Positions 3,935-51,759 of a stretch of 64,000 nucleotides of DNA are shown piece by piece. The DNA is from Mytilus edulis (taxonomy: Eukaryota), in the NCBI RefSeq assembly GCF_963676685.1, contig NC_092354.1, positions 77,500,001-77,564,000 on the forward strand, written 5' to 3'. The notes below the pieces were generated by a model. The model made no database searches, was not told the origin of the DNA, and saw only the letters and a program-made list of their open reading frames with translations. A program made the position numbers and the translations under genes. Every line of letters starts with the position of its first letter. The stretch's first letter is position 1.

Positions 3935-5274
3935 TGTCAGCCTATTGATAATTGTTTTCCATTTAATGATGTCAACCTAATTCAAGTCCTGACGTTTGAC
4001 TTTTGAAGTTGTACACATTTTGACAACCTGAAATCTTTTACTGTTGTACTTTTACTATTACTTATGAACTTTATAGCTGACTATGTGGTATGGGCTTTGC
4101 TCATTGTTGAAGGCCGTATGGTGACCTATAGTTGTTAATGTCTGTATCATTTTGGTCTCTTGTGGACAGTTGTCTCATTGGCAATCATACCACATCTTCT
4201 TTTTTATATGTCTTAAATTGTCTTCGTTAAAACTTATTTTTTAAATAATTGACATGATAAATTAGGTGACCGAGCTTCTAGTTTATACATTAAGTAAGTG
4301 AACTGAAACTATGGCTTCAATTCAAACAAACAACATTAATGTAGACTGGTAGTTTGGGATGTTTCTTTATTGATAGGACTGTCCTTCTGGTATCTTTCGC
4401 CCCTCTTTTGTTGAAAGGTTCTTTTGATTTTCTCTTTATTGTGGAGTCGAATACACTTGTCCTAAATTTAATGCTTTTGTGTATTGTGTTGTTTTCCGTA
4501 TTCTAATCTTGGTCTCAAGTATATCTGATCAAAGTTATTAACGAAAAAAAGGGGCATGAAGACAGTTAAATTTTGTAACATTGAAACAGGATGCATATAG
4601 ACAACATTCAATTCTGTTGCATTTCCGTCAAAAACTTTGTGGACATCATTTGTGTGGTTAGTGGCATTGTAATTCTGTTACTTTGTTTAGCGAATGGTTA
4701 AACAAATATAATGCTGTATTGAACGATTTATTTGACAATTTAATTCTAATACAGCACTACTGTTATAAAGGAATTGTGACTACGTACCTTTGGAACAAAC
4801 ATTATTTCTAGTTTATCCTGCATAATAACGACTATGAAGACGCTTGATGAACTTTAATAGTGCAGGGAAACAGGCGAGACCCTCTATATAAAAAAATGAT
4901 GTCATCAAGGTCACACATATTTAAAGAACTTTTCCAGTGAAGCACATATAAACTGGAAAGTGGTCTACTCATTGTACATTTTTATTTTATCTAGACATGT
5001 ATTTAGAAATTGTCTAATAATCATCACCATGATTAAATAAACACCCTTTGCATCCCCATCTGAATTCGCCACAGGTTAATTGGATCACAACATTTGAGTC
5101 ACAATTACATCGTTGACTTCTGGATATCTTCAACAACTTTCCATGGTTCAAGGCTGATTTGAATGGTCAATTCAGTACACAAGATATTATAGCTTTTCAT
5201 CATACAAGTAATGTCCAATATGTTCACAACAGTCTATAATTTTGATTTAAAATCATAGAGCTGTCCTGTACTAA

Positions 5275-5378
5275 TCACAACAGTTCATTTACAATTACAT
5301 CAACAGCTTCCTGGAAATTGTCAACAACTTTATATGGTGGAGGGCTGATTTTGTCTTCATCTCCAATTCTATACTTTC
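5275..5378 (-). CDS. HDHD2: HDHD2 exon 7 (stop)
   Basis: [33 protein letters not shown]; acceptor TTTTAATTCAG. Confidence 0.9.
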
Positions 5379-8300
5379 CTGAATTAAAAAAAAAACAGGT
5401 GCTCCGCAGGGCGCAGCTTTATACGACCGCAGAGGTCGAACCCTGAACAGTTGGGGCAAGTATGGACAAAACATTCAAGTGTGATACAGCTCTGAATTTG
5501 GATTGTGATCAAATTTTTGACATTACATGGGTTTTTCTTACACAAAACAAATGTCAAGATTTTACAAATCAATTAAAGATTTCTTCTTCAAACTTTTTAA
5601 ATCTAAAATTAAATAGTTGACACAGCATAGGTTTCTGACACAGAATGAATGTGGTCTAATGAACTTAAAAGTTTTTTTTGCCTTTGAGCAATTCACTATG
5701 CTGTTGAATATTAATCCTCTCAAAAAAATGTTTGAAGAAATTTTCTTTTTATTTATGAAATCTGAAATGAGAAAAATTTAACCCCCCCTTTTTTTTCACA
5801 TCCCCGTTTCCCTTTTTCCAAAACTGATATCAATTTAAATTTCTAATGGAGTTTGCAACAATAACTACTCTTTTAAATACATCATAAAATATTAAAATGT
5901 AAAATAAAGTGCTTGTTATCACTGAATGGTAAAGATTGGTTGGTAGTAAAAGTGAATATACATTGTTTATTGTATAAAACAATAAAAAAAACTTTATCAG
6001 CAACATTTTATATTGGCAAATTTCCAATGAAGTTATTTACATAAAGTTATTGGCAAATAAAAATAGAAAATGACATCATAGTCATGTCTGGCAAATGTCT
6101 AACATACATTATCTAAAAACATTTTAGATAAGATAGGGAAAAAAAGCTTCATCAGCAACATTTTATATTGGCAAATTTCCAATGAATTTATTTACATAAA
6201 GTTATTGGCAAATAAACATAGAAAATGACATCATAGTCATGTCTGGCAAATTTCCAACATATATTATCAACTACTATTCTTTAAGTTTAATTTTGGACCC
6301 TTTGGACCTTAATGTAGACCAATTTGAAAACTGGACCAAAATTTAAGAATCTACATACATAGTTAGATTCGGCATATCAAAGAACCCCAATTATTCAATT
6401 TTTGATGAAATCACACAAAGTTCAATTTTGGACCCTTTGGGCCCCTTAGTCCTAAACTGTTAGGACCAAAACTCCCAAAATCAAACCCAACCTTCCTTAT
6501 ATGGTCATAAACCTTGTGTTTAAATTTCATAGATTTCTATATACTTATACTAAAGATATGGTGCAAAAACCAAGAATAATGCTTATTTGGGCCCTTTTTT
6601 GGCCCTTAATATCTAAACTGTTGGAAAAAAAACTCCCAAAATCAATCACAAACTTCCTTTTGTGGTCATAAACCTTGTGTCAAAATTTCATAGATTTCTA
6701 TTCACTTAAACTAAAGTTATAACTAGTGCGAAAACCAAGAAAATGCTTATTTGGGCCCTTTTTGGCCCCTAATTCCTAAAATGTTGGGACCAAAACTCCC
6801 AAAATCAATCCCAACTTTCCTTTTGTGGTCATAAACATTGTGTTAAAATTTCATTGATTTCTATTCACTTTTACTAAAGTTAGAGTGCGAAAACTAAAAG
6901 TATTTGGACAACGACGACGACGCAGGACGACGACGCCAACGTGATAGCAATGTGTGGTCATAAACCTTGTGTTAAAATTTCATTGATTTCTATTTAATTA
7001 TACTAAAGTTATTGTGTGAAAACCAAGAATAATGCTTATTTGGGCCCTTTTTTGGCCCTTAATTCCTAAACTGTTGGAACCAAAACTCCCAAAATCAATC
7101 ACAACCTTCCTTTTGTGGTCATAAACCTTGTGTCAAAACTTCATTCATTTCTATTAACTTATACTAAAGTTATTGTGCGAAAACCAAGAAAAATGCTTAT
7201 TTGGGCCCTTTTTTGGCCCTTAATTCCTAAACTGTTGGAACCAAAACTCCCAAAATCTATCACAAAAGAGGGACGAAAGATACCAAAGGGACAGTCAAAC
7301 TCATAAATCTAAAACAAACTGACAACGCCATGGTTAAAAATAAAAAAGACAAACAGAAAAACAATAGTACACACGACACAACATAGAAAACTAAAGAATA
7401 AACAACACGAACCCCACCAAAAACTAGGGGTGATCTCAGGTGCTCCGGAAGGGTAAGCAGATCCTGCTCCACATGTGGCACCCGTCGTGTTGCTTAAGTG
7501 ATTACAAATCCGGTAAATAGTCTAATTCGGTAGGTCATATTCATGAAAGGGAAGGGGATTGTAGTTACGACGTAAGGAACATATCCGATATCATTTGTGA
7601 AACGGTTATTCCATAACGGTCAACCAACTCGTGATGGCGTCCGTAAAATTTACGAAGGGATGATTTCAACTTCACCATTTGGAACTCTTGGTTTAATAGC
7701 TTCCTTGTGAGCAGCAAACCTCTATCAAGAAAACCATGATAGGAAATGCAAGCACAACCTTCCTTTTGTGGTCATAAACCTTGTGTCAAAATTTCATAGA
7801 TTTCTATTCACTTAAACTAAAGTTATAACTAGTGCGAAAACCAAGAAAATGCTTATTTGGGCCCTTTTTGGCCCCTAATTCCTAAAATGTTGGGACCAAA
7901 ACTCCCAAAATCAATCCCAACTTTCCTTTTGTGGTCATAAACCTTGTGTTGAAATTTCATTGATTTCTATTCACTTTTACTAAACATTTCTAAAGTTAGA
8001 GTGTGAAAACTAAAAGTATTTGGACAACGACGACGACGCAGGACAACAACGCCAACGTGATAGCAATATGTGGTCATAAACCTTGTGTTAAAATTTCATT
8101 GATTTCTATTTACTTATACTAAAGTTATTGTGCGAAAACCAAGAATAATGCTTATTTGGGCCCTTTTTTGGCCCTTAATTCCTAAACTGTTGGAACCAAA
8201 ACTTCCAAAATCAATCCCAACCTTCCTTTTGTGGTCATAAACCTTGTGTCAAAATTTCATAGATTTCTATTCACTTAAACTAAAGTTATAGTGCGAAAAC

Positions 8301-11300
8301 CAAGAAAATGCTTATTTGGGCCCTTTTTGGCCCCTAATTCCTAAAATGTTGGGACCAAAACTCCCAAAATCAATCCCAACTTTCCTTTTGTGGTCATAAA
8401 CCTTGTGTTAAAATTTCATTGATTTCTATTCTCTTTTACTAAAGTTAGAGTGCGAAAACTAAAAGTATTCGGAAAACGACGACGACGCAGGACGACGACG
8501 CCAACGTAATAGCAATATACGACCAAAAAATTAAAATTTTTGCGGTCGTATAAAAATAATACATGTAAAACAACAGTTAATCGTTTCTCTTTATACGTAG
8601 ATATCTTATACTGTTTTTTTAAACAAATTACCAAAAGGAAAATTTGGTTTCAATTGGGCCAGTAATGTCAATTGATGACAGAAAATGAACAACAAAAACA
8701 ATATTAGAAACAGCAGAAAAGCAGCAGAACAGCACTTTTAATGTTGGTCTTCATCTTGTGATGTCCGAGGCAATGAAAATGGATAAAACACAGTTAAACA
8801 CACACTGCTCACAAAATAATGTAATATTGACAATAGCACCAGTTTAGACATAATTACTAGCAAACTACATATTATATTTCAGCATCGAGGAACAAAGAGA
8901 ACACCAGTGATTAGTATAACCTGCTCTTACAATAATACCTAGCCTACAACCTGTTCCAAGCAGAATTCCAAGCATATCACACTTGAATTTTACCTGTTGT
9001 AATAAGAATTCATAGCATATCAGACTATGCGCTATGGGCTTTGCTCATTGTTGAAGACCGTACAGTTACCTTTAGTGTTAGCTTCTGTGTCATTTTGGTC
9101 TCTTGTAGAGAGTTGTCTCATTGGCAATCATACCACATCTTCTCTTTTATATATTCCCTGTTTAAACAGAAATCTCTAGCACTCAAATAATCAGTTTTAC
9201 CTGTTCTAACTAGTATTCCTAGCAAACCAGTGTATTGTACAACCTGTTTTAACCCAATTTCCTAGCAACCCCATAACTTTTCAAAATGCCCATGGGAGTT
9301 TTGCATCCAAGTTGGCTGTCATAGTCCTTAAAAACCTTCAAGGGGGCCTTCAAATACATTTTAATGTTGTTTTTTTTTGGCTTCTCCATACTTTTAAATG
9401 CTTTAAGTTATTGTAAAACTAATGTTTTTGTTGAAATTGTGGACAAAATTGCTCTTTCAAAATTTCAATTTGGGAGCCACCATGGGGGAAATCCCCTGCA
9501 AATAGTGAAAGTTGGCAGATATGCATCCCAGGCTTGTATGACTTCAGTATTACCTGTTCTAACTAGAATTCCCAACATACCAGTCTTTTGAGCACCACCA
9601 ATGTCATCTCTCACATCCTGAAATTTCAAAATGTATAAATTATGTTTCTTTAATCATTTTTTCAAAATAATAATGTAATTTATTTTTTTTAGTTTTCTTC
9701 AGCAAAACAATGTTGATATTGATTCACTGTAATAAAGGGCAGGATTAACATTGATTCACTGTAATAAAGGGCAGGAGTAACATTGTATCACTGTAATAAA
9801 GGGCAGGATTAACATTGATTCACTGTAATAAAGGGCAGGATTAACATTGATTCACTGTTATAAAGGGCAGGATTAACATTGATCCACTGTAATAAAGGGC
9901 AGGATTAACATTGATTCACTGTAATAAAGGGCAGGATTAACATTGATTCACTGTAACATAGGGCAGGATTAACATTGATTCACTGTTATAAAGGGCAGGA
10001 TTAACATTGATTCACTGTAATAAAGGGCAGGATTAACATTGTATCACTGTAATAAAGGGCAGGATTAACATTGATTCACTGTAATAAAGGGCAGGATTAA
10101 CATTGATTCACTGTAATAAAGGGCAGGATTAACATTGATTCACTGTAATAAAGGGGCAGGATTAACATTGATTCACTGTAATAAAGGGCAGGATTAACAT
10201 TGATTCACTGTTATAAAGGGCAATATTAACATTGATTCACTGTAATAAAGGGCAGGAGTAACATTGTATCACTGTAATAAAGGGCAGGATTAACATTGAT
10301 TCACTGTAATAAAGGGCAGGATTAACATTGATTCACTGTAATAAAGGGCAGGATTAACATTGATTCACTGTAATAAAGGGGCAGGATTAACATTGATTCA
10401 CTGTAATAAAGGGCAGGATTAACATTGATTCACTGTAATAAAGGGCAGGATTAACATTGATTCACTGTAATAAAGTGGCAGGATTAACATTGATTCACTG
10501 TAATAAAGGGCAGGATTAACATTGATTCACTGTAATAAAGGGCAGGATTAACATTGATTCGCTGTAATAAAGGGCAGGAGTAACATCACTGTTATAAAGG
10601 GCAGGAGTAACATTGATTCACTCTAATAAAGGGCAGGAGTAACATTGATTCACTGTAATAAAGGGCAGGAGTAACATTGATTCACTGTAATAAAGGGCAG
10701 GAGTAACATTGATTCACTGTAATAAAGGGCAGGAGTAACATTGATTCACTGTTATAAAGGGCAGGAGTAACATTGATTCACTGTTATAAAGGGCAGGATT
10801 AACATTGATTCACTGTAATAAAGGGCAGGATTAACATTGTATCACTGTTATAAAGGGCAGGATTAACATTGATTCACTGTAATAAAGGGCAGGATTAACA
10901 TTGATTCACTGTAATCAAGGGCAGGATTAACATTGATTTATACAAAATTCATACAAAGTTTGTCTTAATTTCAAATAAGAAAAAATGTTGAAAGTATCAA
11001 TTTAACTTAAAAGTAACAAGGCAACATCATTGGTGGTATTACCTCTACTAGAAAACAAAAAAACAAAGAAACACAACTGTTGTAAAATATGAAATAATGT
11101 TTGGAAATCATGCTGATATGATTTTTGTCTTGTGTTTTCTGTTGACACCCTTTTTACCTCGCCAAAAAACAATAATTAAACAAAAAAGGAAACAAACCAC
11201 ACAGTTCTTTCTTTAACCAATGAATTTAAAACAGACATTTCATTGTGTAAATGCTATTAATTCTATTCCATGTATCCATTACTATGGTACCCTGTACACC

Positions 11301-14300: not shown

Positions 14301-17300
14301 TGTCCAAAATCTTTCGTTAGATGAACCTGAAATTTGAGGCCAAAATCGGCCCTTACTGGACCTACTCCTTTGCATTATTGTACTTTCTTCAAAACCGCAA
14401 TTATTATAATAATTGCATGCAATAATTTCAAAATTTACAGCATCCCTTTTTTATGTATAAATTTAACATAAGGGAATTTTCTTGATCTAATCACTGCTAT
14501 TGCTATAATCACTGATATTGCTAATAGGAATAGCAGTGATACATTGTATTATAAACAATTAACTACATTTACCTTTAAAATCTTCCAATGCTCGATCATC
14601 CACTATCATTAATGGTCTCAAATCTCTCTTCTCTATCAGTTCTCGTGCTGCTGTCAGTGAGGTAAATATCTCACTTGGTTTGATGTCAAACCCTATACCA
14701 TTCAGTCTATTCAGTAAACATTTCTTTGATTCTTTGGTTGTATTTGTTACAAATTTGACATTCACATTCTGGCTTCTTAATCTGTAACAAAGAAACATTT
14801 TATGTTACTAATGGCGCTTTTTTAATATCACATCCTCATATCAACATGAGACAGATTTTATCCATTAGATCACCAGTGATGGTGATACAAGTGTCACCAA
14901 GAGCCAATGCACTTCGAGTTTAAGGGGGACTATCGAACATGCACAGCCCAAGGTACAGAGGGTCAGTCTTTCGCAAGACTTAAGCAATGGCAGGCAAAAC
15001 TATAAAGCAAGCAGCAAGTTGTAACAGTTTTATATAGTAACAGGTCCAAATAATAATAATGATGCCAAAACAATTTACAAACAAATAAAGTCCAAATGTT
15101 CCAAATAATAAAGTCACTAATTTCACTAATCCAATTCACAGTTTAAAGTTAAAGTCCAAAATGTTCCAAATATTCTAAGTTGATGTTGTCTGGTTGAACG
15201 ATTACAGTTGTGTTGAGCTGTCTTTTGAGTACGGGTTTCTCCTGAGTAGCTGAGCCTGGTTGGCTTTTGAAGCACTCCTATCTGGATCACACCGACGAGA
15301 CTACACTGACGAATAACTGTTCGACTCCGATATTTAAGGCGAATCCTGAAAACTACTCATAAAATGACAGCCATTGCTAATTTTGATAATTGAGATAATT
15401 TGAGTATTAATAATATTGTTTACAATGTCCAAAGGTGAAATATGAATAATGTCAATTAGAGAGATACAAGTTAATTACATTTATAATCCTAATTAAAACA
15501 TAATATTGCTCAGATTAATTAATGACAATTGACAAGATACCAAAGTGTTGCTCAGAGCAATTATTAAGAAGCGACATGTTTCACAAAATTTACCTGAGTA
15601 ATTAAATTAAAAATTTGTCAAACAATTATTTCATAATTTCATATTTTCTAAAATAATATATTTTCTCAATAAAATTCATTTTAAAAACTTTTACCTAAAA
15701 GAACACCTATGACAAATTCCCCCCTTCTCCAATATGTTTGTCCTCAAACATGAGAAAATATACAAAAACAGTAAACGATAAACATAATAAATATATACAA
15801 TAATCATGAAGAATAAACTTATATACACAAGAAAATGCCGAGATAAAGATAACATATTTTTCAAGATAAGATGAAAAATTCAAGATTAGACAAAATTGCT
15901 AGATTAAGAAAATTGCCAGATAAGATATGAAAAGCAAGACTGATGAAAATGAAAAATAAGACAAGACATATACGCAAAGAAAAATTCTAGACTGAAAATT
16001 ACATAAAATTTTGGCTGTATGCTCCTTGTATAAGGTGGTCGGCCCTATACAAGTGCAGGGTGTGGAGTTGAATGACCAGTCCAACTCCAAAGGGTTTAAA
16101 TCATTGATCATAAATATCCTTTTTAAAACAAAATGTTACATAAAAATAAAACAAAACATACTAGCTAGTATTACAATAAAAATACAAGACACACTATATT
16201 TACAATACCGGTATCTATCTTTTTACAATTCTATAACTCCTTATTTGCCAATCTATGTGGCTATACTCTATAATATTCTCATTTATACCAATCTATGTGG
16301 TTATACTCTATAATATTTTCAGTTATACCAATCTATGTGGTTTTACTCTATAATCTATTCATTTCTTTGCCCATCTTTGTGGCTTTATAAAAATAGTAGC
16401 TACAATTCATTATTTCATTCTATAAAACACTATCATATTAAACAGTTGTACATGTACTATTCACAAATTTATCTTCTTCTCATACTTATTTCTATCTTGT
16501 ATTGTTGTTCTAACACATTTATAAAGTTATTTATTGACGCATTTGACAGACTATCAAATGTATCCCACTCTGGTGCAATGACTGGATTCCTGTATCCTGA
16601 TAAATATTCCGTTGTACCATCTATGTTGTATCGAATTTCGTGTATTTTTCCATCAGAGGCTATTTGAAAACTGCAGTCGCGTTGATTTTCCTTTCCTAAT
16701 CTTTTCTCCATAGCATATTGAATGTCTTGTTGTAAAAGAGCTTGTTTGAAACGTTCCTTATGATCTATTAAAACTTGTCGTGCGATATTTGGTGCTGAAG
16801 TCATTGATTCATATTTTGTAGTATTCCCAGATTTAATTAAAAAGTATGGTCGATTGTTAACAATTTTCACAGCCAATAACTGTTGATTTTCATCTTCTTG
16901 ATTTTGTTCATTTATGGTTTCAGTTTGTGTGCTTATATCAGCTTTGACTTTAGTTGAAATATATTGTACACTATTAACAGCTGGATCCGGTTTTGTGAAA
17001 AATTTATGTTTATTCTGCTGTAATGGACGTTTTCTTTTCTTTCCACTCATTGTACGTTGTGCATGAAATTCTCGTACTAATTTTTCTGGGACCTTGCATG
17101 GAAAATACCAATCTGTGTTTCTTGATTTATTAGTAAACTTAAGTTTATAATATAATGTACCATTACCTCTGACTGATGATAAAACTTGTTGAATCTCCTC
17201 TTCTTTGAATGCTTTACACTTATTGTTCTTACAATCCTGACACCATGGCTTGTTGTCTTTGACTGGTGCATTTACGGTTGAATCTCCTGAAGGGCCTACA

Positions 17301-20300
17301 GTTCTCTTATTTGTTTCACTATTTTGTGCTGGTTGTTGATTTTGTTGTTGTCTGTTGATTCTACCGACAGGAAGTTGTTGTTGGTTCTGAGCTGGCCTAT
17401 TGTTGTTAATTATAGGAATAGGTAGTTGTTGTCTATTGATTGCATTGTTAATTGGTGGTACAGGTTGTTGACGATTGTTCGGTAAAAGTTGATCATTATC
17501 ATTGATGTTGTCATCTTGTATTTCTTCTGGATTCAGTTCTTCGTTGTCATTTTGAAATTCATCTGGTAAATTAGTCGGTCTGTCTTTTGGATCATAATAT
17601 GGCTTCATTCGTTGAGCGTTTACCATTGACACAACCTCTTTGTTTGTTGCACAATTCCTAAGTTTGTAAGTATTATTGGGTCCAATGCGGGTAATATAAT
17701 AAGGTCCTGACCATTTTCTATGTAATTTTGGTGCTTTTCCAACAGGAACTTTGGTACAATAAAGCCAGACACGTTGAGCTGGTTGAAATTCAGGTTCTTT
17801 AGATTTTTTGTCATATTGTTGTTTATATCTTTCTTGAGCTTGCTTGATGTTCTTAGCAGCAATTTTTCTTGATGTTTCCAAATTTTGTAGAATTCTGCTT
17901 AGAAATATTTTATGATCTTGTGCCAAACGATCTTTTGGTATTAGTGCGGTGTCAATGGGTAATGTCATTTCTCGTCCATAAAGTAAAAAGAATGGTGAAT
18001 AATCAGTTGATTGAGTTGCTGGCGTAGCACGGTATGCCATTAAAATTCCAGGAAGAACATCATACCAATCATCTTGTTGATCTCTTGTATAGGCTCTTAA
18101 CGCTTGTAAAATTACAGAGTTCATTCTTTCGCATGCGCCATTTGTCTGTGGATGGTATGAGCTTGTAAGATGTCTTTTAATATTGAAGAGTTCAGAAAGA
18201 GCTTTAACTAAATTTGAAACAAAATTACGTCCGCGATCAGATAAAAGTGTTCTCGGAGCACCATAACGGGATATTATTTCTCTATATAAAACATTTGCAA
18301 CTTCACCTGCTTCTTCAGATCTTAACGGAAAAGCTTCACACCATTTTGAATAACTATCAACTACAAGTAGAACATGTTTGTATTTATCTTTGGTTGTTGG
18401 AAGGCCACTTAAAATATCCATATGCCATCGTCCGAAAATATCATTTGTTGGTTGTGGTTGTAAAGGTGGTGGTTTTGAATTGAAAGCGCGTTTGGACTGC
18501 TGGCACACTTCACACGTTTTTACATATTGATTAATGTCTTTATACATCGATGACCAAAAGTATTTGTTTCTGATTGCAGCATATGTTCGTTCAAATCCTT
18601 GATGTCCTCCTCCCAGAATGCAGTCATGATAGGCCTTGAGTATTGAATCACGGAGATTCCTTGGAACTGCAATCTGTTTGACAAGTCGTTCATCTTTAGG
18701 CACTTTCTTACAACGTTTTGAGTAGAAGTGTTTTAAAATTCCATCTTCTAACTCAAAGTTGAATGATTCGGCTACGACTGCCCTTGCAAGTTCTGGATTC
18801 TGTGGTACTTGTCCTGTCTGTTTGTATTTAATGATATGCACAAAGTCTCCACATGTCTCTTGTTCTTTGGCTAAATTGGTTAATTGAACATCATCGATTG
18901 TCGCGGTTTGTAAACTGGAAATAACTGCATCTTCATTTTCACCCTTATAAATAAATGTTACTTCAGTATAATCTTTCGGTATATCTATGGAGCCTAAATG
19001 GTCTGCAAGTTCACTAGAGTCATAAGAAGCACTATTGTTAATTTCTAAATGTTTTTGTCTGGATAAGCAGTCTGCTGGGTTTTTAGATCCTGCACGATGT
19101 TGAATTTTAAAATTATATCCTTGTAATAGCAAACTCCACCTACCAAGTCTTCCCTGACAATCTTTGACTTTCTGAAGGTATTTTACTGAAATATTGTCTG
19201 TATACACTGTGAACTCTTGATTTGCCAAATAATGTTTAAAATGTTGAACTCCTTCTACTAATGCTAAAGCTTCTTTGTCAGTAATATGCCACTTAAGTTC
19301 TGAACCCCTTAATTGTCTACCTCCATAAGCAATCACATGTTCTAATCCATTTTGAATCTGGCTTAAAATATATCCATTTGAAAAATCTGAAGAATCTGTT
19401 GCTAAAATGAAAGGTTTGTCTAAATGAGGAAACGATAAAATTGGAGCTGATGTCAAACGGTCTTTTAAATTTTGAAACGCTATATCACATTCTGAAGTCC
19501 ACTTGAATCTTTGATCTTTCTTTAAAAGCTGTGTTAATGGAGCTGCTATGTGGGCATAGTCCTTCACAAATTTCCTATAGTAGTTTGCCATTCCTAAAAA
19601 ACTTTTAACTTGCTTTGCAGTGGTTGGTCTTGAGAAGTCCTTAACTTTTTCTGTATTTTCAGGATTGACGCGGATGCCATCTTTTGATATAACATGTCCC
19701 AGATACTTGATTGTTCTTGTCGCGAATTTACATTTTTCAGGATTAAGTTTCAGGTTTGCTTCACGTAGGTTTGAAAACACTTGTTGAAGGTGATTAAGGT
19801 GGTCTTCAAAGTTCTTTGAGAAAATCAGAATGTCATCGATGTAAACCAATGCAATTTTGAAATTTAAATCCTTTAGCACTTTTGTCATTAAACATTGAAA
19901 AGTTAATGGAGAGTTCATCATACCAAAAGGAAGTCTATTAAATTCATATACACCTTTATGTGTAATGAATGCACTTTTATGCTTTGTTGTTTGGTCTAGC
20001 GGGACCTGCCAAAATCCTGACGTTAAATCGAGAGATGAAAATAGTTCTGGTTTTGAATCTGCTAAAGTGTCAAATATATCTGTCATAGTTGGAATCACCG
20101 CTGACATGGGTTCTGTTATACGGTTTAAAGCTCTATAATCTACACATACGCGTATACTTCCATTTCTTTTCTTAACAAGTACGACTGGACTATGCCATGG
20201 TGAGGTAGATTCCTCAATAATATTATTTCTTTCCATTTCATCAAGTTGTTTGTCTAGTTCTTTGCGCATTTGTGGAGATTGTCTATATGGAGCAGCACTT

Positions 20301-33187: not shown

Positions 33188-33197
33188 TGATGAAATC

Positions 33198-34446: not shown

Positions 34447-34881
34447 CCGTACTCAATATAACAATACACTTAAAAGTTCAGAAGTGATACTCATATTTCC
34501 ATCACTTGTAAGTCAACACAACCCAAAATACTCAGGTGGACAAACAGCACGTCCATACAGCCCAGGGGACGTAACTCTAATTCAATAATTTTATATAAAA
34601 TGGTTTACAGAGTAGAACTTACATACATTAACTAATAAACTATATGAAATAAAAGAAACTGCATTTTTCTATTACAATAATCGCTCTCCCTTTGAAAAAG
34701 AGATTGTTCCACCAATCTAAGTATATGAATAGACAATAACACGCAATAAATAAAACAATATTTTTTTCCTTTGTTTAATTATTATTATTTTTTTTTTCTT
34801 TTTGAAACTTCATGTTAAATGTTTGTGTTATTTTTATATTTTATGTTTAAATCTTTTTTTTTAAATGAATTGATGTTTATG

Positions 34882-35250
34882 GTGTTGTTTTATAATTTTA
34901 CATCACTGGGTCGATACCTCTGCTGGTGGACTATCAGTCCCCGAGGGTATCATCAGCTCAGTAGTCAGTGCTTCGGTACTGACATGATTAAACAAACTTT
35001 ACTAAAATTGTCCGTTTATAAATTTTGAAATTATTATGAAACTAAGGTTTCAACTCCCTCAGGTAAAGTTGGCTTTAGATGAATTTGGCTATTTATTTTA
35101 GGTATTTTTAACATATAGCTCTTCAACGATTTTCGGTACTTATACATTTTCGGAATTCAAATGTTTGGCTTTGAGCGTTCCTGATGAAGGTAAATCCAGA
35201 AAAGCGCTTCGGACGCAATAAATTATTAAACGTGTTGTTTTATATTTTTA
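34882..35250 (+). mobile_element. Retrozyme-like / Penelope pLTR-like 350-nt unit
   Basis: Bounded by a near-direct repeat gtgttgttttata.tttta at 34882 and 35232 (350-nt period). Contains a structured 5' domain with a C(UUCG)G hairpin and a hammerhead motif near the 3' end. Confidence 0.7.
35175..35216 (+). ncRNA. Minimal type I hammerhead ribozyme
   Basis: Stem I GCGUUC/GGACGC; core CUGAUGA; short stem II A-GG-UAAAU-CC-A; GAAA; palindromic stem III A-AGCGCU-U; cleavage triplet UUC (after 35210). Confidence 0.75.
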
Positions 35251-35848
35251 TGATGTTTCAATGCTTTGGTATTAATTTTAAATCGTTGTTCTTGATAGAA
35301 ATTGTGTACAATTTTATGTTTACTATAATATTAATTTGAAAATGGATTTATAACTTTTAATTATTAATGTAAGTAAATAATCAATATCCATATTTAAACC
35401 TCAAAACAATATAGAAAACAAGCAATTAAATGATGAAAAATCAATGGATATATAAACGTATAACTTTAGTTTTTCAAATTGATTTTAAGCGATAAAAACA
35501 ACTTGAACTTATAATATTTTTCTCTTTTTTTTTCATTGTTTAGACTTCCTTAAATCATACTAATTAATTGGTGTTTTATTCTTTAAATTGTTGTTTTTAT
35601 TTAATTGATGTTATGATGATAAAATATCATTAAGTCTTAATTATAAATCGTTGTTCTTTAAAGTTTGTTACCCACATGCTTACAAATGAACGTTAATTTT
35701 TACAGTTGATGAAAATTAAAAGAAATATATGCAAAGTGTTTAAACAAAATGTTACAAAAATAAATGAAATATGAAAAACTTGAATAAATCTTAAACAGAA
35801 TTTGATTTTGCTTATTTCAGTCTCTAAGTTACTGTTTTATCATTTTGA

Positions 35849-36030
35849 TTGCGTTCCTGCTCCTGAGGTAACCCATTGTCAATTGTTTGTGGTGTCCCTG
35901 CTCCTGTGGTGACCCATGCGTATATTTTTAATGGCGTTCCTGCTCCTGAGGTAACCCATTCTGTCAATTATTTGTGGCGTCCCTGCTCTTGAGGTGACCC
36001 ATTATCTATCATTTTTGGCGTCCCTGCTAT
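35849..36030. repeat. ~42-bp degenerate tandem repeat, 4.5 copies, alternating A/B variants
   Basis: Conserved gcgtyccTGCTCCTGAGGTRACCCAT plus a 15-17-bp AT-rich variable part. Confidence 0.85.
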
Positions 36031-36477
36031 TCAGTTAGCCTGAGCAATATGCTTGCCTTTATATGTATATTTTAAATTATTATAACTTTATACCGGCATC
36101 CAACAGTAAACGGCAACAAGAATTTGACTATGTAATAGGTAACTTAACCTTAATGAAGTTGAACCTAATCTTAAAGACGACACACTTGCTGTATATTTGT
36201 TTTGATATTTATTTATTGGTTTGTTAATAAAATAGGCCATTATTTGTCTTGATAGAATTTACTGCTGTGACCTTTCTGCCTTTTAAACTCGGCTTGACAT
36301 GTGGTTCCATTTTGATCATTATTAAAGGCCGTACGATGACCTATGGTTGATAACTTCTTCGTTATGTGGTGACTGGTGACCGTGTGTATCTGTCTAATTG
36401 GCAATCAAAACACTTCTGCGCAGTTTTAAATGTACCATTTAAGTTGTACACTCAATTCATACAAGCTAACACATATA

Positions 36478-38004
36478 TACTGAGTGCCATTGAAAACGCA
36501 ACACTTGTAAATTTCAAATATTTTAAAATATATAATTAATTTTTTTTAAATGATTACCTATATCGGTTAGAAAATGAATCGTCAGACTTCTTTCGACAAC
36601 TTTACGCTTGAATGATTTTAGAAAAAAGTTACGTGCTTGGTTACAAAAAAGGGGGATGAGTCGAGTGCACCGCTATTTAACGCACGAGTGATTTTCTCAT
36701 TGTGTGTTTTGGAAAGCCTCGCTTAAGAATTGAACTTTCCCATCCTTTTTTGTTAGCCACTGCAATAAACTAAGCCGTAGATGCCAAGACTTTTAGACAA
36801 CCAGAGACATGAAGTTTGGGGCATGGTGCAAGGAGGCATTTCAAGTCGTGAAATTGCACGCAGAATGCATTGTTCAGCCTCAACAATTACCAGACTTATC
36901 CAAAGATTCAACCAAACTGGGTCTTTGAATGATAGACCACGTCCCGGCAGACAGAGAGCAACTACTGCCCAACAGGACCGATACATTCGTCTTCAGCATC
37001 TGCGAGATCGGTTCCGTACGGCTGTCCAAACACAACGGGAGACTGTCGGCGTCCATAGGAGACAAATTGGAGCAAACACGGTAAGACGCCGTTTGCGCAG
37101 CAGTGGATTGAGGGCACGGAGGCCTTTCCGTTGTCACATGCTGACAGCAGTACGACGCCAAAATCGCTTAAGATGGACACAACAGCGTCAGAGATGGTCA
37201 CACTGGCAATGGACAACTGTCTTATGGACGGACGAATCAAGATTTCATCTTCGCCGTAGTGATGGACGAACTCGTGTGTGGAGACGAAGAGGAGAACGCT
37301 ATGCAAATTCGTGTATCCAAGAGACAGATCGTTGGGGTGGTGGTAGTGTCATGGTATGGGGAGGAATATCATTCAACCATAAAACTCCTCTCATCACTAT
37401 CAATGGCAATTTAAACGCTCAACGCTACATTGATGAAGTTTTACGACCGACCGTTATACCGTTTATGGCTGGACATCAAGATGTTAATCTTTTTCAGCAA
37501 GATAACGCTCGTGCACACTCAGCACGACTCACAGCTGCGTTTATCAACAACAACCATGTTCAGACATTACCATGGCCAGCCTTTTCGCCGGATTTGAGTC
37601 CAATTGAACACTTATGGGATCAAATTGGACAAGCCGTAAGACGACGACAGCCACCACAAGTTACGCTGCGTCAACTCGAAATTGCATTGCGAGAAGAATG
37701 GACAAACATTCCACAACATCGTATCCGACGTCTGGTCAGGTCAATGCCATGCACGTCGTTGTAGAGCTTGTGTTGCAGCACGCGGTGGACACATTCGTTA
37801 TTGAGACTGTGAGTTAGAGAATTGTAGCGTTGTGTTGAATTCATGTATTGCATTCGAATCGTGGTAATTGAACATTTTTGGTTGACTTTTATCTTTAGAT
37901 AAACCCTTTAACTGTCTTTAACAATTACTGTACACAAAATATTATTTTTTATAAAAATGTTATTTCTAAAAAACTTAGTGTTGCGTTTTCATTGGCACTC
38001 AGTA
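36478..38004 (+). mobile_element. Tc1/mariner DNA transposon, full length
   Basis: ~28-bp TIRs TACTGAGTGCCAWTGAAAACGCAACACT (1 mismatch), TA TSD, internal transposase. Confidence 0.95.
36781..37764 (+). CDS. Tc1-family DD34E transposase, C-terminus truncated by a 4-bp insertion
   Basis: HTH, RPGR AT-hook-like motif, WTDES, MVWGGI, QQDNAR-(34 aa)-SPDLSPIEHLW. The native end RRCRACVAARGGHIRY* lies in another frame ending at 37804. Confidence 0.93.
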   Translation: MPRLLDNQRHEVWGMVQGGISSREIARRMHCSASTITRLIQRFNQTGSLNDRPRPGRQRATTAQQDRYIRLQHLRDRFRTAVQTQRETVGVHRRQIGANTVRRRLRSSGLRARRPFRCHMLTAVRRQNRLRWTQQRQRWSHWQWTTVLWTDESRFHLRRSDGRTRVWRRRGERYANSCIQETDRWGGGSVMVWGGISFNHKTPLITINGNLNAQRYIDEVLRPTVIPFMAGHQDVNLFQQDNARAHSARLTAAFINNNHVQTLPWPAFSPDLSPIEHLWDQIGQAVRRRQPPQVTLRQLEIALREEWTNIPQHRIRRLVRSMPCTSL

Positions 38005-40274: not shown

Positions 40275-40410
40275 TTAATCCTTGAGCAAAAATATATATA
40301 GAAAAACTGAACACAATATAACTGTTGTAAAAGACATCTGTATCAGCTGAGCGGACGATGTTATTGGAGAAAACTGGACAACTCGACTGGTTCGTTTGCC
40401 ATCTGCAGAT
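40275..40410 (-). CDS. Hexosaminidase exon G (stop; hydrophobic tail)
   Basis: SADGKRTSRVVQFSPITSSAQLIQMSFTTVILCSVFLYIFLLKD*; acceptor TTAACAG. Confidence 0.85.
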
Positions 40411-43400
40411 CTGTTAAAAAAACAATGAGGTTAATTTACTTAATAGGTTAATACACTACAATATATGGTAGTAAGGCATTCACCCCCCCTCCAAGTCAGT
40501 AATATCAAAACGTTGGATGTTTCAAGGCTTTACACATTGATTACCCTAGATGCGGAACTGTTAGTTTCTTATGTTATATATTGCCTATTTGCGGACCATA
40601 TATCTATGGTATGCAGATAGTAAAAAAATAACATAAGGACCTAAGAGCTACGGTTCCGCAGCTACGATTACACATGCTAAATTTAAAGATGGAGTACTTT
40701 TTCTCATAATGATGAACTGTTACTTATTTAACCACATTTCCTTTATATATGGACTATTTTCAAAAACAATCTAAGACACAAGCGATGATTGCACCTTTCT
40801 ATTTGTCAACTTTCAATTTCTCAACATTTACAAACCGTGTGCCCATCGTTTGATGTTTTGTTTTAAAGTAATCCTTTTTAAAAAAAATTATGAAAGCCAA
40901 AACAAGTAAGTTGACTTTTATGAAATATATGTTGCACAAATGACGTCGGAAATGTTTCAATTTTCCATACCAAAATCCCGTCCTCTTTTCTATGAATGTT
41001 ACTTACTTAAAAAGACTAATCCCTGGTTTTAAACTTACATTCAGAAAACGATCTACTTTCACTTCTGAAGCATCTGAAGCACATCTAGGTTTTTATGGAG
41101 TTGCTTTGTCTTTAAATCTTATGATATATTTTTTAGACTTGTGTCTGTCTGCTAGTTTTTCGTTTTGTGTCATGGTAGTGCCTGTTCGTTTTTTCTTCTC
41201 TAATAAAGAATAGCAATAACTGATACATATATAATATATATATGAATAATACCTACTTTGTTCTTAGGTACACAGGTGATCCAGTGTATGGTATCGTTCC
41301 ACTCTTCCACGTCTGAGAGTCGGTGCTGTACTCTACACTCAGTCCTGGGAAAGCTGTGTTAGGTTTGATCTCGTCACCGTCAAGACTACAAACAAATTAG
41401 TGACCGAATTAGACTATTTACCGGATTTGTTATCACATAAGCAACACGACGGGTGCCGCATGTGGAGCAGGATCTGCTTACCCTTCCGGAGCACCTGAGA
41501 TCACCCCTAGTTTTTTGGTGGGGTTCGTGTTGTTTATTCTTTAGTTTTCTATGTTGTGTCGTGTGTGCTGTTGTTTGTTTGTCTTTTTCATTTTTAGCCA
41601 TGGCGTTGTCAGTTTGTTTTAGATTTATGAGTTTGACTGTCCCTTTGGTATCTTTCGTCCCTCTTTTAGATTACATGATATTTTATTTCTGTATTACACT
41701 ACTAACGGTTATGCACTCTTGTCTGTCAGTCAATTTTGTTTATTCAAACATTTTGTAAACTGACCTTTTACATGTTGACCTTTTTATGAATGTTTTGTTC
41801 TACTAGAGAACCATGTTATGTACACATAATGAAGTATATCCATACTTTTTTCTTCAACAAAAACATATAAATGGATAACAAATGATTCGTTACTTTATTC
41901 TTTTGAGTAAGCTACATGCCTGATTCATGGGAAAGGATTTGTTACTTTATTCTATTTTGTAAGCTACATATATTTCATCTGGGGAAGGTATTCTTTACTT
42001 TTTTACTTTATTCTATTCAGTAGCTATATGCCTTCCTCTTATGAAAGGGGTGATAAGTTTTCATCTATTTAGTAAGCTAAATAAATGCCTTCCCTGTTGG
42101 AAAGGAGTTCTTTACGTTATTCTTTAGAGCAAGTTGGGATTCTTTACTTTATGCTATTGAGTAAGCATTTACCTGTTTCTTTAGGAAAGGCTTTCTTTAC
42201 TTTAATATAGTGAGTAAGGTACTAATGGGGATCATCTTATAATGTGTATTCTATTATTTGAGTAAGCTGCATGTGTACATACCTCTCTCTTGGGGATGGA
42301 TTTTTTATTTAATTATTGTATATGAAAGCTCCCAAAGAACATTGAGAATGGAAACTTTCCATTATTCTATTATACATATTTTCCTCATGCATAGGAGTTT
42401 TGACTTTGTTGTATTATGTGTGATGGGGCTACATATCTTTCACCGGGGTATTATTTACTATTTTCTATACTTATTTTGAGAGAGATATACTTTCTTCCTA
42501 GGAGGAATAAACAAGTGTGTATGATTAAGCAAAATACATTTCCCCTGGAGGAGAGATTCTGTAATTTATTCCCATGGTCTTCTATAATAATTGAGAAGGA
42601 TATATACCTTCTTCCTTTGAAGGCTATACATATGTGTATGAATAAGCTACATACCTTCCCCCTGGAGGTGGAACTCTATAATTTATTCCCATGCTATCCA
42701 ATCGGTTCAACTCCTTCGTGCCTAATGTTGATGCAAAACTATCCCAATCATTGTTCATCTCCATGGTTCGTTTTGTTTTGGCAGCAACATTCTCCCAGGA
42801 TGCTTTGTGCCAGGCACGTTCTGCCAAGGCCAGTAATCTGGGAAATATCATATAATAAAAGTTGTCCTCACTTAATACCGTCTCCGACCAAAGATGACCT
42901 TGCATTCCTAATAATAAAAGATAATTTTAATTAAAGCTATTAACAGATATTTAAAAAAAAAATGAATACATTTATTTTGGCTAAAATGGATCCTAAAAAT
43001 GTACGGACATAAAGTCATCTGTTGCTAAGACACACGTTTCTGATATGCAAGATTTATCGTGTGTTGAGCGATTAAAAAACGTAATGATGTTTTACTATCA
43101 AGTAGAACTTTACAAGTAGTAAAACAAATTTTAAAACAAAAATTGATGGTAATGATTCTGATTTTTTTTTATATTGATCATTTGTACGTTTTGTATTTTA
43201 AATTGATTAACGAAAGACAAATATTTCATAACATTTTAACAATGTAAAAGAGATACACACCTGCGATGTTTTCTGGTTTTTGTAAAGCAGGACATTTCTT
43301 GTCATTTGCACCGCAAACTTCAGATTTACTGAGTGGAACACCCATTCGAGTTACATCTATGTTTTCATATAATTTATCAGGAAGGAATCTAAATGATTTG

Positions 43401-46400: not shown

Positions 46401-49400
46401 AGAAATTGTTTCATTCTCAATAAAGTCTGTCCTTGAAAAGCATGGAGTCAAAATAAATATAAGTGACCAAACTTTATTATAATACCAACCTTATATTAAC
46501 TTAAAATCAAACCAGAGAACACATATAAGCCACAATGCGCTTAAAACTTACAATTCAATGTGACTTTAAAAATTTTAAATCTCGCAGATTCAAATTTAAC
46601 TAAAACGACATCCAGTTACCATACGTTATAAGCACCAAACTAATATGACAAAATAAAACAAAGGGTCAAAATGTGTAAGAAACCCACACCAAAATTCAAA
46701 GGCAAATTCAATTAAATATACATGTTTACCCAAAGGTCACTATATTAAAGACACAAACAGGACACAATAAGCGTCAAACGCCCCATTGAAATAAAATGAC
46801 ACCTAGCTGTCATCAAACGCTTAAAACTTGAAATCTTGCCATCAGTCAAGTATCAATACAATGAAACATATAAAATAGTTCAATTATTGGTTATGTATCT
46901 ATACTATTAAACGAGAAGATCTCATTTTGTGTGTCGCTTCTCTTCCTTCCACAATAAATCAATCACCATGCCTCTTTGTCCTATAGGTAACATGCATAGT
47001 CGCATTTGTCATCCATTCTTATGATTATTCAGATTGAGTTCTTTTGGGAGACAAGAGTGCACACACTGAAATGTCTCGCCTTCTTTACTAATCATTGATA
47101 TTATGTTGATACTCCTAAATATAAAGCTTTATTACGACTGTCAGATAAACTTAACATGAACCATGAAAATGAGGTCAAGGTCAGTTGAACCATATGCCAG
47201 ACAGACATGTACAGCTAACAATGCTTCCATACAATATAGTTGACCTATTGCTTATAGTTTAAGAAAATAGACCAAGACACAAAAACTTAACACTGAGCAA
47301 TGAACTGTGAAAACCAGGTCAAGGTCAAATAAAACCTGCACGACTGACATATAGATCTTAAAATATTTCAATACACCAAATATAGTTGACCTATGACATC
47401 AAGTATTAGATAAAAAGACCAAAACTCAAAAACTTAACTTTGACCACTGAACCATAAAAATGAGGTCAAGGTCAGATGACATCTGCCCGCTAGACATGTA
47501 CACCTTACAATCATTCCATACAACAAATATAGCAAACCTATTGCATAAAGTATGAGAAAAACAGACCAAAACACAAAAACTTAACTATAACCACTGAACC
47601 ATGAAAATGAGGTCAAGGTCAGATGACACCTGCCAGTTGGACATGTACACCTTACAGTCCTTCCATACACCGAATATACTAGACCTATTGCTTATAGTAT
47701 CTGAGATATGGACTTGACCACCAAAACTTAACCTTGTTCACTGATCCATGAAATGAGGTCGAGGTCAAGTGAAAACTATCTGACGGGCATGAGGACCTTG
47801 CAAGGTACGCGCATACTAAATATAGTTATCCTATTACTTACAGTAAGAGAGAATTTAACATTATAAAAAATCTGAACTTTTTTTTCAAGTGGTCACTGAA
47901 CCATGAAAATGAGGTCAATGACAATGGACATGTGAGTGACGGAAACTTCGTAACATGAGGCATCTATATACAAAATATGAAGCATCCAGGTCTTCCACCT
48001 TCTAAAATATATAGCTTTTAAGAAGTGAGCTAACACCGCCGCCGTAGCCGCCGCCGGATCACTATCCCTATGTCGAGCTTTCTGCAACAAAAGTTGCAGG
48101 CTCGACAAAAAACGACAAAAAGGAGTCCGGATATGATTCCGTCATAAGACTGAATTTTAGTCATAGATAAGACTTCCGGTTTGAAACATGCACAAATACA
48201 ACCAATCGTATGATAGATAACAAAAATGAAAAATAGATAAGTCAATCAGAGCGTTCTCCATATCGTGGTGTTTAGATCACAAGAACCACAACTATTATAG
48301 GTATAATAGTTGTTATTTTTGCGATCTAAACACCATGATATGGAGAGCGCTCTACGATTGGTTGTACTTGTGTCACATATTTTACTTATTCTAATATAAA
48401 TGCAACTGGTATGACCCCTTAAATAGTAAACATTTAAAAAAAAACAGTAGACAGAATACAGAGAGTCTCTTTATATTAAAGTAGTAAAATCGTAGTTTAC
48501 ATGTAGATAAACGCGAAAAATAATTGTCCTCTCTAAGGAGGTATAATATTCTGTCTACTGTTTTTTTTTTAAATGTTTACTATTTAAGGGGTCATACCAG
48601 TTGCATTTATATCAAAATAAGTAAAATATGTGACACAAGTACAACCAATCGTAGAGCGCTCTCCATATCATGGTGTTTAGATCGCAAAAATAACAACTAT
48701 TATACCTCCTTAGAGAAGACAAATATTTTTCGCGTTTATCTACATGTAAACTACGATTATACTACTTTAATATACAGACTGAGACTCTCTGTATTCTGTC
48801 AGGGAATTTCTATGTTAGTATAGAAAGTCCCTGATGCTGTTTACTGTTTTCTTTGAAATGTTTACTATTTAAGGGGTCATACCACTTGCATATATATTAA
48901 AATAAGTAAAACATGCTCAACTTCATCTAAAACTACCTCGTCCAAAAACTTTTACCTGAAGTGGGACAGACGGACGAGACGGACGGACGGACGATCGAAC
49001 AAACAAACGCACGGATGCACAGACTAGAAAACATAATGCCCATAATTGGGGCATAAAAATTATTTGTTAAAAGGGAAAATAGTGATTTGGCAAAAATGAA
49101 AGTAAGGTAGAGATTAGAGGGAGGCAGGACCTTTTTTGTGGCGTCGGGATCGGGTGTTTTTAAGCTCGGGATTTGGGGATTGATCCTTACGGGATCCGGG
49201 AATATATTTTTCGATTTCGGGATATGAATTTCTTTAAATTCTGCATCTCGGGATTTCATGGTTTTAAGCCCGGGATTTCGGGATCAGGACCCCTCCGATC
49301 GACAACCCCTCAAATTAGCCTTAGTCGGTATTAGTCATTTATACATGATTCAAATCCTACCATTGGCATGTTAATAAGGCTATAAAAAAAAAAGCACTGA

Positions 49401-51297
49401 TAGATTGTCATAGAAGCATATTTTTTAGACTAATAATGGTCTATATATAAGCAGTTACATTTATTTCATGTTTGACACGGTGCAAATTTTTAATTTGATT
49501 TGACTTTTACCAAAAGAAGCATTGTAGCAAAGAAGAAGAATAATTGTGGTTGTAGGCCAGAAACACGAATATAATTGAATTCAACAGAAAGGAAACAAAT
49601 ATCGGACTTTGGAAAAAGGGAGATACCTTTATGTTATTCTCCATACATAATATCTTTTACAAAAAAACAGTTCACAAGCTGTATATGCCCGCGCGATTTC
49701 GCGGGTGTGTTCTAGTATACATTTAACATTGGAAATGGTTCTATATTTGACTAACCTGAGTTAATTCTGGTAAACCATTAATTTCAATTCTCCAGCCTTC
49801 GTCGTCGGCCAGGTGGAGATGTAATTTGTTCAGTTTATACATTGCCATTGAGTCCATCAGTTTTTCGAGAACGTTCTTTGAAACAAAATTTCTTGCAACA
49901 TCAATAAACATCCCTCTGAATTCAAATCGAGGCTCATCTCGGATCTCAACCTGTGGTATACTGAGGCCATGTGACAAAAGACTAAGTAGAGATTGGACAC
50001 CATATAACACACCAGCATTTGTCTTTCCATATATGGTAACAGTTTTTGCTGATGGATTCACAGTTAAACTATATCCCTCCGCAGAAAGTATGGTGCTGTT
50101 TATAGACAAATATATATTGACTCCATTAGCCGAAGCTGTGGCACTGCTATCAAAGTTATATTTATCTGCAAAGTGATTTTGTAAAACATTATTTAGATAT
50201 TATGAAAGAAAATTATATCATTGTTATTCTAAATAATATTAACATACGTACGCCTTTGTTACGTTTTAATTACTGAAGATTTACAGAAACCACTTTTCAA
50301 GACAAATTGTCATTCGGAAAACATAACACAAAGACTTATATATGAATGTAGATACTTAACATTTCCATACGATTATCATGTTGAAGCATTGAAACATATT
50401 GTATCAGAGCATAATATGTTTTTTTTTCTTTTCATAAAACAATATTTCATTGCAAAATACCCCATACCTTACAGTGCATATTAATGGAAAACATTTTAAT
50501 TCAATTTAGTAAACTAAAAACTTTTAAAAAATAACTGATTTTATGACATCCCCTTTCCCTCCCCCGCTGAAGTTAAATGGTTGCTCCCTTACCTGTAAGA
50601 AATGCTGCTTCATTGTCAAGTCCACTGTGAACTATTGTCACCTTTCCAGTTATATTGAGCAGTTTAGATGTGTCAAGGTTAGTTATTTCTTTTGGAGTCG
50701 GTATGACCATTTTTATCTGGACATCAGTTTTTGTTGTTTTATAACGTTGATAACGTGACATTGGAGAATAAGGGTCATATTTATCTTCTTTCTTTCGCTT
50801 CCATTGTTTTGCGCTGGTAAACTCCCCAACAAATCCTTCCTTAGTACTATCGATAACACGTGCATTTAGTCCGTCTGCTGAGATGTACCAGTTTGGTGGA
50901 ATGTCTGTTTTAGACACAGCCCAATTAGCGGCATAAAATGTTATTTCTCTCGTTCCATTTTGAGGTAACTCTTTGAATCCGGTTGTAGGTGTCATTGAGT
51001 AGAGACAGCCGTTTTCGTGCATTACTTTGAGATTGACATTCGGAAGCGTATATCCTTCGGGCTTAGTATACAGACCATCTTTCGAAAGGATATGCTTAGA
51101 TTCTACAATGAAAAAACTAAAAAAATATATTTTCCAGTTGACACCTGTCAGAGACTTTGGTGCCTTATTGTTGAACGTCACTTTAAAGAGATGTCGACTT
51201 CCATCATCAAGGTTCTCCACCATGTCAACTTTAATGTCCAAACCGGAAGCGATCTGGTCTAAATCGGATTGAGTTGCTATCTGTGAATTTACATAAC
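40275..51297 (-). CDS. GH20 beta-N-acetylhexosaminidase of bacterial chitobiase architecture, probably GPI-anchored; first (signal-peptide) exon not located
   Basis: Exons 50593-51297, 49756-50165, 44891-45631, 43261-43501, 42655-42907, 41257-41385 and 40275-40410 join in phase (about 870 aa). Motifs: DEPRFEFRGMFIDVARNF, KLNKLHLHLADDEGWRIEI, IPEIDTPGHA, catalytic HFGGDE, LYFDHPYEPDPEERGLYWA, QGHLWSE, FPRLLALAERAW, YRVPPPG, FPGLSVEYSTD, SADGKRTSR, then a hydrophobic tail. Confidence 0.93.
41257..41385 (-). CDS. Hexosaminidase exon F (C-terminal Ig-like domain)
   Basis: LDGDEIKPNTAFPGLSVEYSTDSQTWKSGTIPYTGSPVYLRTK; TTGTAG / AA|GTAGGT. Confidence 0.85.
41401..41668 (+). mobile_element. Penelope-like 3'-tail fragment
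   Basis: Near-identical reverse complement of 7266-7535. Confidence 0.75.
41885..42700. repeat. Degenerate ~50-55-bp tandem array derived from the exon E / intron junction
   Basis: Recurrent (g)taagctacat.cct..cc..ggrraagga.ttctttactttattc units; the terminal unit is the true exon end plus donor. Confidence 0.7.
42655..42907 (-). CDS. Hexosaminidase exon E
   Basis: MQGHLWSETV...FPRLLALAERAWH...YRVPPPGG; TATTAG / AG|GTATGT. Confidence 0.92.
43261..43501 (-). CDS. Hexosaminidase exon D
   Basis: VIMSHATHLYFDHPYEPDPEERGLYWAPRF...ENIAG; TTGTAG / G|GTGTGT. Confidence 0.92.
43846..43937. mobile_element. 92-bp foldback MITE with an 8-bp TSD, nested in a SINE
   Basis: CACAGGCACTTGTCTC...GAGACAAGTGCCTGTG, near-palindromic through the centre ccttattatataataagg; TSD GTTTTATC at 43838-43845 and 43938-43945. 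Confidence 0.88.
44891..45631 (-). CDS. Hexosaminidase exon C (catalytic HFGGDE)
   Basis: VGSKRCH...IPEIDTPGHARAAI...HFGGDEV...GWEDG...ANAGYK; TTTCAG / AAG|GTAACG. Confidence 0.93.
46898..49715 (+). mobile_element. Non-autonomous Helitron copy 1 (composite)
   Basis: A|TCTATACT ... subterminal hairpin CCCGCG(CG)ATTTCGCGGG ... CTAG|T; homologous to 60325-61898 in inverted orientation. Confidence 0.88.
47051..48110 (-). mobile_element. HINE with ~130-bp tandem repeats nested in Helitron copy 1
   Basis: Absent from Helitron copy 2 (empty site gggag|aaaaacgac). Terminal hairpin TGTCGAGCCTGCAAC...GTTGCAGAAAGCTCGACA, GCC microsatellite, repeats of aaccatgaaaatgaggtcaaggtca...gacatgtacacc. Confidence 0.8.
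49756..50165 (-). CDS. Hexosaminidase exon B (GH20b and start of the catalytic barrel)
   Basis: ...AEGYSLTV...AGVLYGVQSLLSL...DEPRFEFRG...LPELTQ; TTGCAG / CAG|GTTAGT. Confidence 0.92.
50593..51297 (-). CDS. Hexosaminidase exon A (CHB_HEX-type N-terminal domain)
   Basis: GYVNSQIATQSDLDQIASGLDIKVD...WKIYF...NWAVSKTDIPPNWY...VIPTPKE; TTGCAG / G|GTAAGG. Confidence 0.88.
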
Positions 51298-51342
51298 CTG
51301 CAATAGAAAAAACGTTCCAATATCATGTTGGGGAGCAATTTG

Positions 51343-51379
<37 letters not shown>

Positions 51380-51759
51380 GACTCAAACTCAGAAGCGATT
51401 TGATAATAATCGGGTTGTGTTACTACTAGTATATATTTGTGAATTTACATAACCTACAATAGAAAAAAAAACTTCTTATTTCATGTTAGGGTGCAATTCG
51501 TTTTAAAATCAAACTAAAACTCAGGAGCGATTTGAAGTAAGTCATGTTGCGTCACTATCTGTCAATTTAACATAACCATTCATGAGTTCAGTTTTCTTTT
51601 CTAACAAATAATCAGATATATAGTTATATGGTACAAAGGGTATTACAAATGTAAAGTAATCGTCAAATACACAGCTACATTATAACCAACGGAGATTTAG
51701 AGTATTTCTCATTCAATACAATCATGATAATCTTATTATGAACAGACGGTTTGAAGTCT

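Follow-up and report, generated by a model that had tools for sequence, protein, structure and literature searches.

Mirage repeats at splice junctions of the mussel Mytilus edulis and their frequency at exon edges

The word "mirage", for a tandem duplication of an exon-intron boundary, was reportedly coined by Canestro et al. in 2002. Amphioxus mirages are described in Adh3, in the globin genes BflGb6 and BflGb9, in troponin C and in PGBD5 (PMC3087553, PMC3902484), and one of the accounts reports them without disturbance of splicing (PMC3087553). Human minisatellites whose first unit lies over an exon-intron boundary are listed for F7 IVS7 (37 bp), CBS IVS13, 6-16, LMNB2 and PDGF; in F7, the most upstream of the identical donors is described as the one used (PMC1557585). 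A preliminary description of a stretch of mussel DNA recorded degenerate tandem copies of splice junctions running into introns, and offered them as a pattern without a named description. As these sources present it, the pattern has both a name and human examples (PMC3087553, PMC3902484, PMC1557585). Three arrays in the mussel stretch are mirages, a known kind of repeat in a new host.

The stretch analysed here (the window) comprises 64,000 nucleotides of contig C11 in a 1.37-Gb genome. Its two genes are the homologues of Mytilus HDHD2 and Mytilus beta-hexosaminidase, with 90–92% identity over the query exons only. Fourteen exons, all on the minus strand, were placed by tblastn and by joining the reading frame; they give two open frames in which every intron is GT-AG. 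The first coding exon of the hexosaminidase gene lies beyond the window edge, 15.8 kb upstream of the acceptor at 51297, and the existence of this exon establishes that the acceptor is real. The 15.8-kb first intron also contains a 548-aa open stretch with a reverse-transcriptase domain (56263–57906, plus strand).

Tandem Repeats Finder at a score of 30 missed all four of the arrays that had been called clear, so local alignment against empirical backgrounds was used instead. Each of the 28 exon edges was compared, with 40 exon bases as the query, with its own 1.5 kb of flank and with 150 background stretches. Four edges beat all 150 backgrounds, and these were exactly the four loci of the preliminary description. 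The stop-codon end of the hexosaminidase gene was a fifth edge above background, narrowly and with a 55-base query only (32 versus a maximum of 30). Inverted controls at the 28 edges stayed at background level. Three of the four loci, the donors at 9554 and 42655 and the acceptor at 51297, stand as junction arrays; the fourth, at 5084–5160, does not.

The first array follows HDHD2 coding exon 6 (9554..9617, minus strand; tblastn and joined open frame). Six decayed copies of the exon end and its donor, with a unit of about 43 bp and 62–85% identity to the real junction, occupy 8913..9275 on the minus strand. Their donors lie at 9244, 9201, 9158, 8994, 8951 and 8921, and the GT is kept in all but the copy at 9158. 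The nearest copy is 62% identical to the junction and the second, at 85%, is the best, so there is no monotonic gradient. Exon 6 is separated from the first copy by a 250-bp dispersed element that is probably MITE-like (9275..9527; 40 scored of 1038 candidates, 88–90% identical), and a repeat of apparently SINE-like character lies within the array (9016..9157; up to 56 overlapping matches in a 1.4-Mb sample). The interruption of arrays by mobile elements, noted earlier, is thus borne out. The array itself had no match elsewhere in a genome search that passes over very frequent words and may fail to find distant copies. Upstream of the exon, a young 32-bp minisatellite of 38 copies (9718..10938; one locus, 94% matches) ends 100 bases before the exon-6 acceptor. 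It had been proposed as a possible echo and was rejected, its best score over the 14 HDHD2 exon edges being 29, equal to the background 99th percentile of 29.

The other two arrays belong to the hexosaminidase gene. Decayed copies of the end of one coding exon (42655..42907, minus strand; tblastn and joined open frame) and of its donor at 42655 extend over 41890..42620 (minus strand). The best copy, at 42538, gives a unit of 117 bp and is 82% identical to the real junction; the distal copies are weak, seven other candidates reaching only 58–63% identity where the 99th percentile of the background is 60%. Beyond the window sequence, the array was covered by no more than short contig pieces, taken from two further runs, and these showed no differences. 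At the second coding exon (50593..51297, minus strand; joined open frame), two copies of the acceptor and exon start lie at 51384..51580 (minus strand), the first at 156 bp and the second a further 123 bp upstream. They are 80% and 76% identical to the real junction, with the AG intact in the first and lost in the second. Both the donor stretch and the acceptor array were single-copy in the genome search, within its same limits of skipped common words and missed distant copies. Just past the window lies a tandem hexosaminidase paralogue (G000:C11:77580167-77592793). It, too, has a decayed echo at the corresponding donor (77586871), and this echo resembles the paralogue's own exon.

All three arrays have the sequence features of mirages. 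The unit spans the real boundary, and direct copies follow head to tail in the adjoining intron. The unit lengths of about 43, 117 and 123–156 bp fall within the range expected of mirages, from tens to about 160 bp. Many units but not all retain GT or AG (five of six in HDHD2 and one of two acceptor copies). In the gene models, the exon-adjacent sites give intact frames that match the homologues. Tandem duplication of a whole exon, as in mutually exclusive exons, was considered and rejected; the window copies hold one edge and about 30–60 exon bases only, not both splice sites and an open frame.

The locus at 5084..5160 (minus strand) is a single copy of the interior of the HDHD2 last coding exon (5275..5378, minus strand; joined open frame) together with its stop codon, and 60 of its 77 bases are identical (78%). 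It sits 3' of the stop, outside any intron and without a splice site, and was rejected as a junction echo. A further possible echo at 35849–36030 is part of a dispersed family that contains a 41-bp repeat (35780..36060; 41 genome matches, the best 84–91% identical) and lies at least 4 kb from the nearest mapped exon. There, a reading of the units as fragments of dispersed mobile elements that resemble exon edges by chance is correct. For the three junction arrays it deserves almost no credence, as they match nothing elsewhere in the genome search and their copies contain coding sequence conserved in homologues. An origin from dispersed elements, which had been named as grounds for abandoning the echo interpretation, therefore applies to this possible locus and not to the junction arrays.

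The window holds other repeats as well. HDHD2 intron 1 carries an LTR retrotransposon (14892–22903) with 823-bp direct repeats (14892–15714 and 22081–22903) around a reverse-transcriptase match; the repeats are 100% identical, which points to a very recent insertion. An uninterrupted 327-aa frame of a Tc1/mariner-type transposase (DDE_3, HTH_Tnp_Tc3_2) occupies 36781–37761 on the plus strand. Dispersed elements with internal 147–163-bp tandem repeats lie at 6282–8558 and 47051–48112, the first with a SINE-like repeat nested at 7264–7531. Two more dispersed repeats, at 41403–41685 and 5381–5601, end within about 20 bases of the real acceptors at 41385 and 5378, and may have contributed part of the pyrimidine tract and of the intron end there.

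The rate of such arrays was estimated in 1.55 Mb holding myosin, ABCC-transporter and hexosaminidase genes, a sample of three families that includes related paralogues and is not one of random genes. Introns were placed by spliced alignment to homologues; the procedure recovered 12 of 12 window introns exactly, and the splice consensus was normal. We kept 601 introns, of which 592 had enough flank and 507 were at least 250 bases long and outside the window. Kinase-family loci were left out, being long single-exon matches without boundaries; among them are tandem arrays of near-identical single-exon matches at 1.8–1.9 kb spacing (G000:C1:44210256-44230434, C3:19693088-19698990). In a first pass, direct copies turned up in the neighbouring intron for 36 of 1162 edges (3.1%), versus 384 of 4500 interior anchors (8.5%); at a score of 34, none of the 1162 edges had an inverted copy. 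This control was dropped because it overstates depletion: an interior anchor may be any unit of an array, and an exon only its end unit. In the replacement, interior anchors were counted only as the first unit for donor matches or the last unit for acceptor matches. A first-pass donor excess (20/343) was likewise set aside since it counted the window's own introns, and the 12 window introns were removed afterwards.

With these corrections, echo arrays start at 33 of 1014 splice sites (3.3%) in the 507 introns, and the corresponding interior rates are 3.4% and 3.3%. Local tandem duplication across exon edges, with units derived from the exon, is thus a recurrent event, as had been proposed. The enrichment at exon edges over random intronic positions that was expected to accompany it, and whose absence was to count against the proposal, is not there: the 507-intron sample shows no net enrichment of echo arrays at splice sites. 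Echoes were detected at 3 of 25 sites in the window itself (versus 3.3%, p about 0.05), which was picked for the echoes. The suggestion that echoes build intron sequence likewise shrinks to a minor part of intron growth; among 347 long introns, 25 had an edge echo and 159 had some local direct repeat.

We conclude that the arrays are tandem repeats with a real splice junction as their end unit, and that they probably arose through the ordinary process of short duplication that has filled the other introns of this genome, and were then left to decay. The breakpoints are consistent with this. Junction overlap was 0–5 bases in the young edge arrays where it could be measured from whole-unit runs (8 of 15). 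Of 68 interior arrays, 8 could be measured in this way, and 7 of these had an overlap of 0–4 bases. As overlap is alike at edges and interiors, one ordinary process fits both. Microhomology was sought for the 60-bp unit of a myosin array and amounted to 0 bases.

In outline, a stretch of 40–300 bp would be duplicated head to tail, probably when a staggered break is closed by end-joining, or else through slippage. Near-blunt joining of ends, once breaks with 3' overhangs have been filled in, is described as a source of small tandem duplications (PMC8355091), and may have acted in the mussel arrays. A duplication over a donor would leave the exon as the first unit and one over an acceptor would leave it as the last, and the reading frame would survive in either case. 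Further units would be added by unequal exchange and then eroded by mutation and by mobile elements; the copies and the insertions are observed, and the process is our reconstruction. The exon had been described as the terminal unit in the clear arrays, and this is true of the junction arrays. Selection for the array polarity that spares the exon had been invoked to account for it, and is unnecessary because geometry alone fixes the exon as the end unit. Selection can act only on whether the exon-adjacent site is still picked. The tendency of copies to become more similar towards the exon, which had also been claimed, is weak: among 20 arrays with at least two copies, the nearest copy is more similar than the farthest in 12, less similar in 5 and equally similar in 3 (12/17, p=0.14).

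The state of the copied splice sites bears on a different reading, in which the copies are kept because they tune expression as decoys or alternative splice sites, for instance by way of nonsense-mediated decay. Five of the six HDHD2 copies do carry CAG|GT-like donors despite flanks of 62–85% identity, and in some human arrays the one or two closest copy sites are described as being used (PMC1557585). The AG was broken in none of 9 acceptor copies (1.7 expected from the flanks) and in none of 17 in a wider count (2.4 expected). The copies were, however, detected by aligning sequence to the junction, which biases the set towards intact sites, and GT loss over the 27 donor arrays was at or above chance: 7 of 27 copies were broken versus 4.7 expected from the flanks, and 23 of 90 versus 17.6 in the wider count. 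There is no sign of targeted inactivation of copy splice sites, and the intact AG in the 17 acceptor copies is no evidence that copy acceptors are selected against. In 35 of 36 arrays (34 outside the window and 2 inside), splicing at the nearest copy site would cause a frameshift or a stop, which makes a reservoir of alternative sites, as first suggested, doubtful. The sole exception, in an ABCC transporter (G000:C2:91518311), has a nearest copy donor that would give an open, in-frame insertion of 42 bp. Mobile elements, moreover, break the arrays. In two RNA runs no read fell over 41817–42509, at a hexosaminidase exon depth of only about 1–5, and the joint table was filled by reads from dispersed repeats. 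We regard maintenance as decoys as very unlikely.

Under the preferred reading of ordinary duplication followed by decay, splicing would probably stay with the site next to the exon, and most readily so at donors, where it is the first site that wins. Donor arrays would then be about neutral and acceptor arrays would probably be removed more often, as the counts at the two kinds of site suggest. Donors acted as first units at 24 of 507 introns (4.7%) versus 3.4% in interiors (ratio 1.38, interval 0.86–2.06), and acceptors as last units at 9 of 507 (1.8%) versus 3.3% (ratio 0.53, interval 0.21–0.96). The split of 24:9 gives a Fisher p of 0.012. A junction-free check from raw protein-match ends gave 24:13 (p=0.10); four of its rows were echo copies scored as exons, and without them it gave 23:10 (p=0.035). 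The most cautious count, which takes three related myosins with a shared breakpoint once, was 21:10 (p=0.07). Repeats generally are scarcer over the last 150 bases of introns. The direction of the donor excess fits the upstream-donor use described for human F7. These data do not separate mutation bias from selection as its cause.

An excess at donors could also mean that donors are mild hot spots of short duplication, for instance through breaks associated with transcription, with splicing or with the edges of nucleosomes, or that the conserved exon is a protected master that re-seeds its array. Among the 347 long introns the donor rate reaches 5.8% (20/347; interior rates over both sets, 3.4–3.6%). 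The donor ratio over the two sets, 1.4–1.6, would amount to a modest hot spot, and its intervals, the second being 0.91–2.41, all include 1. The same myosin-head donor carries echo arrays of 1 to 16 copies in five of seven paralogues (G000:C10:50242474, C10:50288495, C9:18433652, C3:78772623, C10:45596857). Three different unit lengths occur among these, and the three paralogues that share a 60-bp unit have copies carrying their own paralogue's exon variants. Such repeated use of one donor, like the separate echo in the neighbouring hexosaminidase paralogue, is what a hot spot or a master exon would produce. The p value for same-junction clustering nevertheless rises from 0.004 to 0.11 once the three related myosins count once. 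The donor ratio is lowest (1.18, interval 0.53–2.2) among young duplications of more than 95% identity, and a conserved master would stay detectable longer than two drifting copies do, so that a small excess might arise by that alone. We consider hot spots or re-seeding an unlikely explanation of the donor excess.

It is possible, though we put it forward tentatively and would not call it probable, that the spliceosome filters junction duplications asymmetrically. Donor arrays might be tolerated, or even favoured, and reach at most about twice the interior rate; some donors might be struck repeatedly in different paralogues, with the protected exon re-seeding the array, and acceptor arrays might be purged to about half. 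If so, mirages would form a genome-wide natural experiment on the rule that the first donor wins in splice-site choice, and a donor excess that held genome-wide would offer thousands of naturally occurring tests of spliceosomal choice between identical sites. In the part of the literature that our search covered, we found no genome-level count and no donor/acceptor comparison. As objects the arrays offer little that is new, being a named type of repeat that, in this three-family sample, is as common as random local duplication predicts. Their practical consequence is that gene prediction and read mapping can be led astray by such copies at about 3 in 100 mussel splice sites.

The mussel arrays can be set beside three described systems. 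Intron gain by tandem genomic duplication, or internal gene duplication, likewise involves a short intragenic duplication that includes splice signals; as described, it makes a new intron, whereas the mussel duplications span an existing boundary and make none (PMC4974935, PMC3443670). The amphioxus mirages have a cephalochordate host rather than a mollusc, and the mussel arrays are more decayed (58–85% identity versus 81–100% for BflGb6), with mobile elements interrupting them (PMC3087553). The passages on mirages in that account contain no genome-level rate or donor/acceptor comparison (PMC3087553). The human arrays are presented as young, near-identical VNTRs with tested splicing, and the listed cases are donors only; the mussel copies are old and are known from sequence (PMC1557585). 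The human and mussel arrays are alike in that the donor is reiterated in the intron, in the human case as "5' pseudo-sites" of which the most upstream is normally used (PMC1557585).
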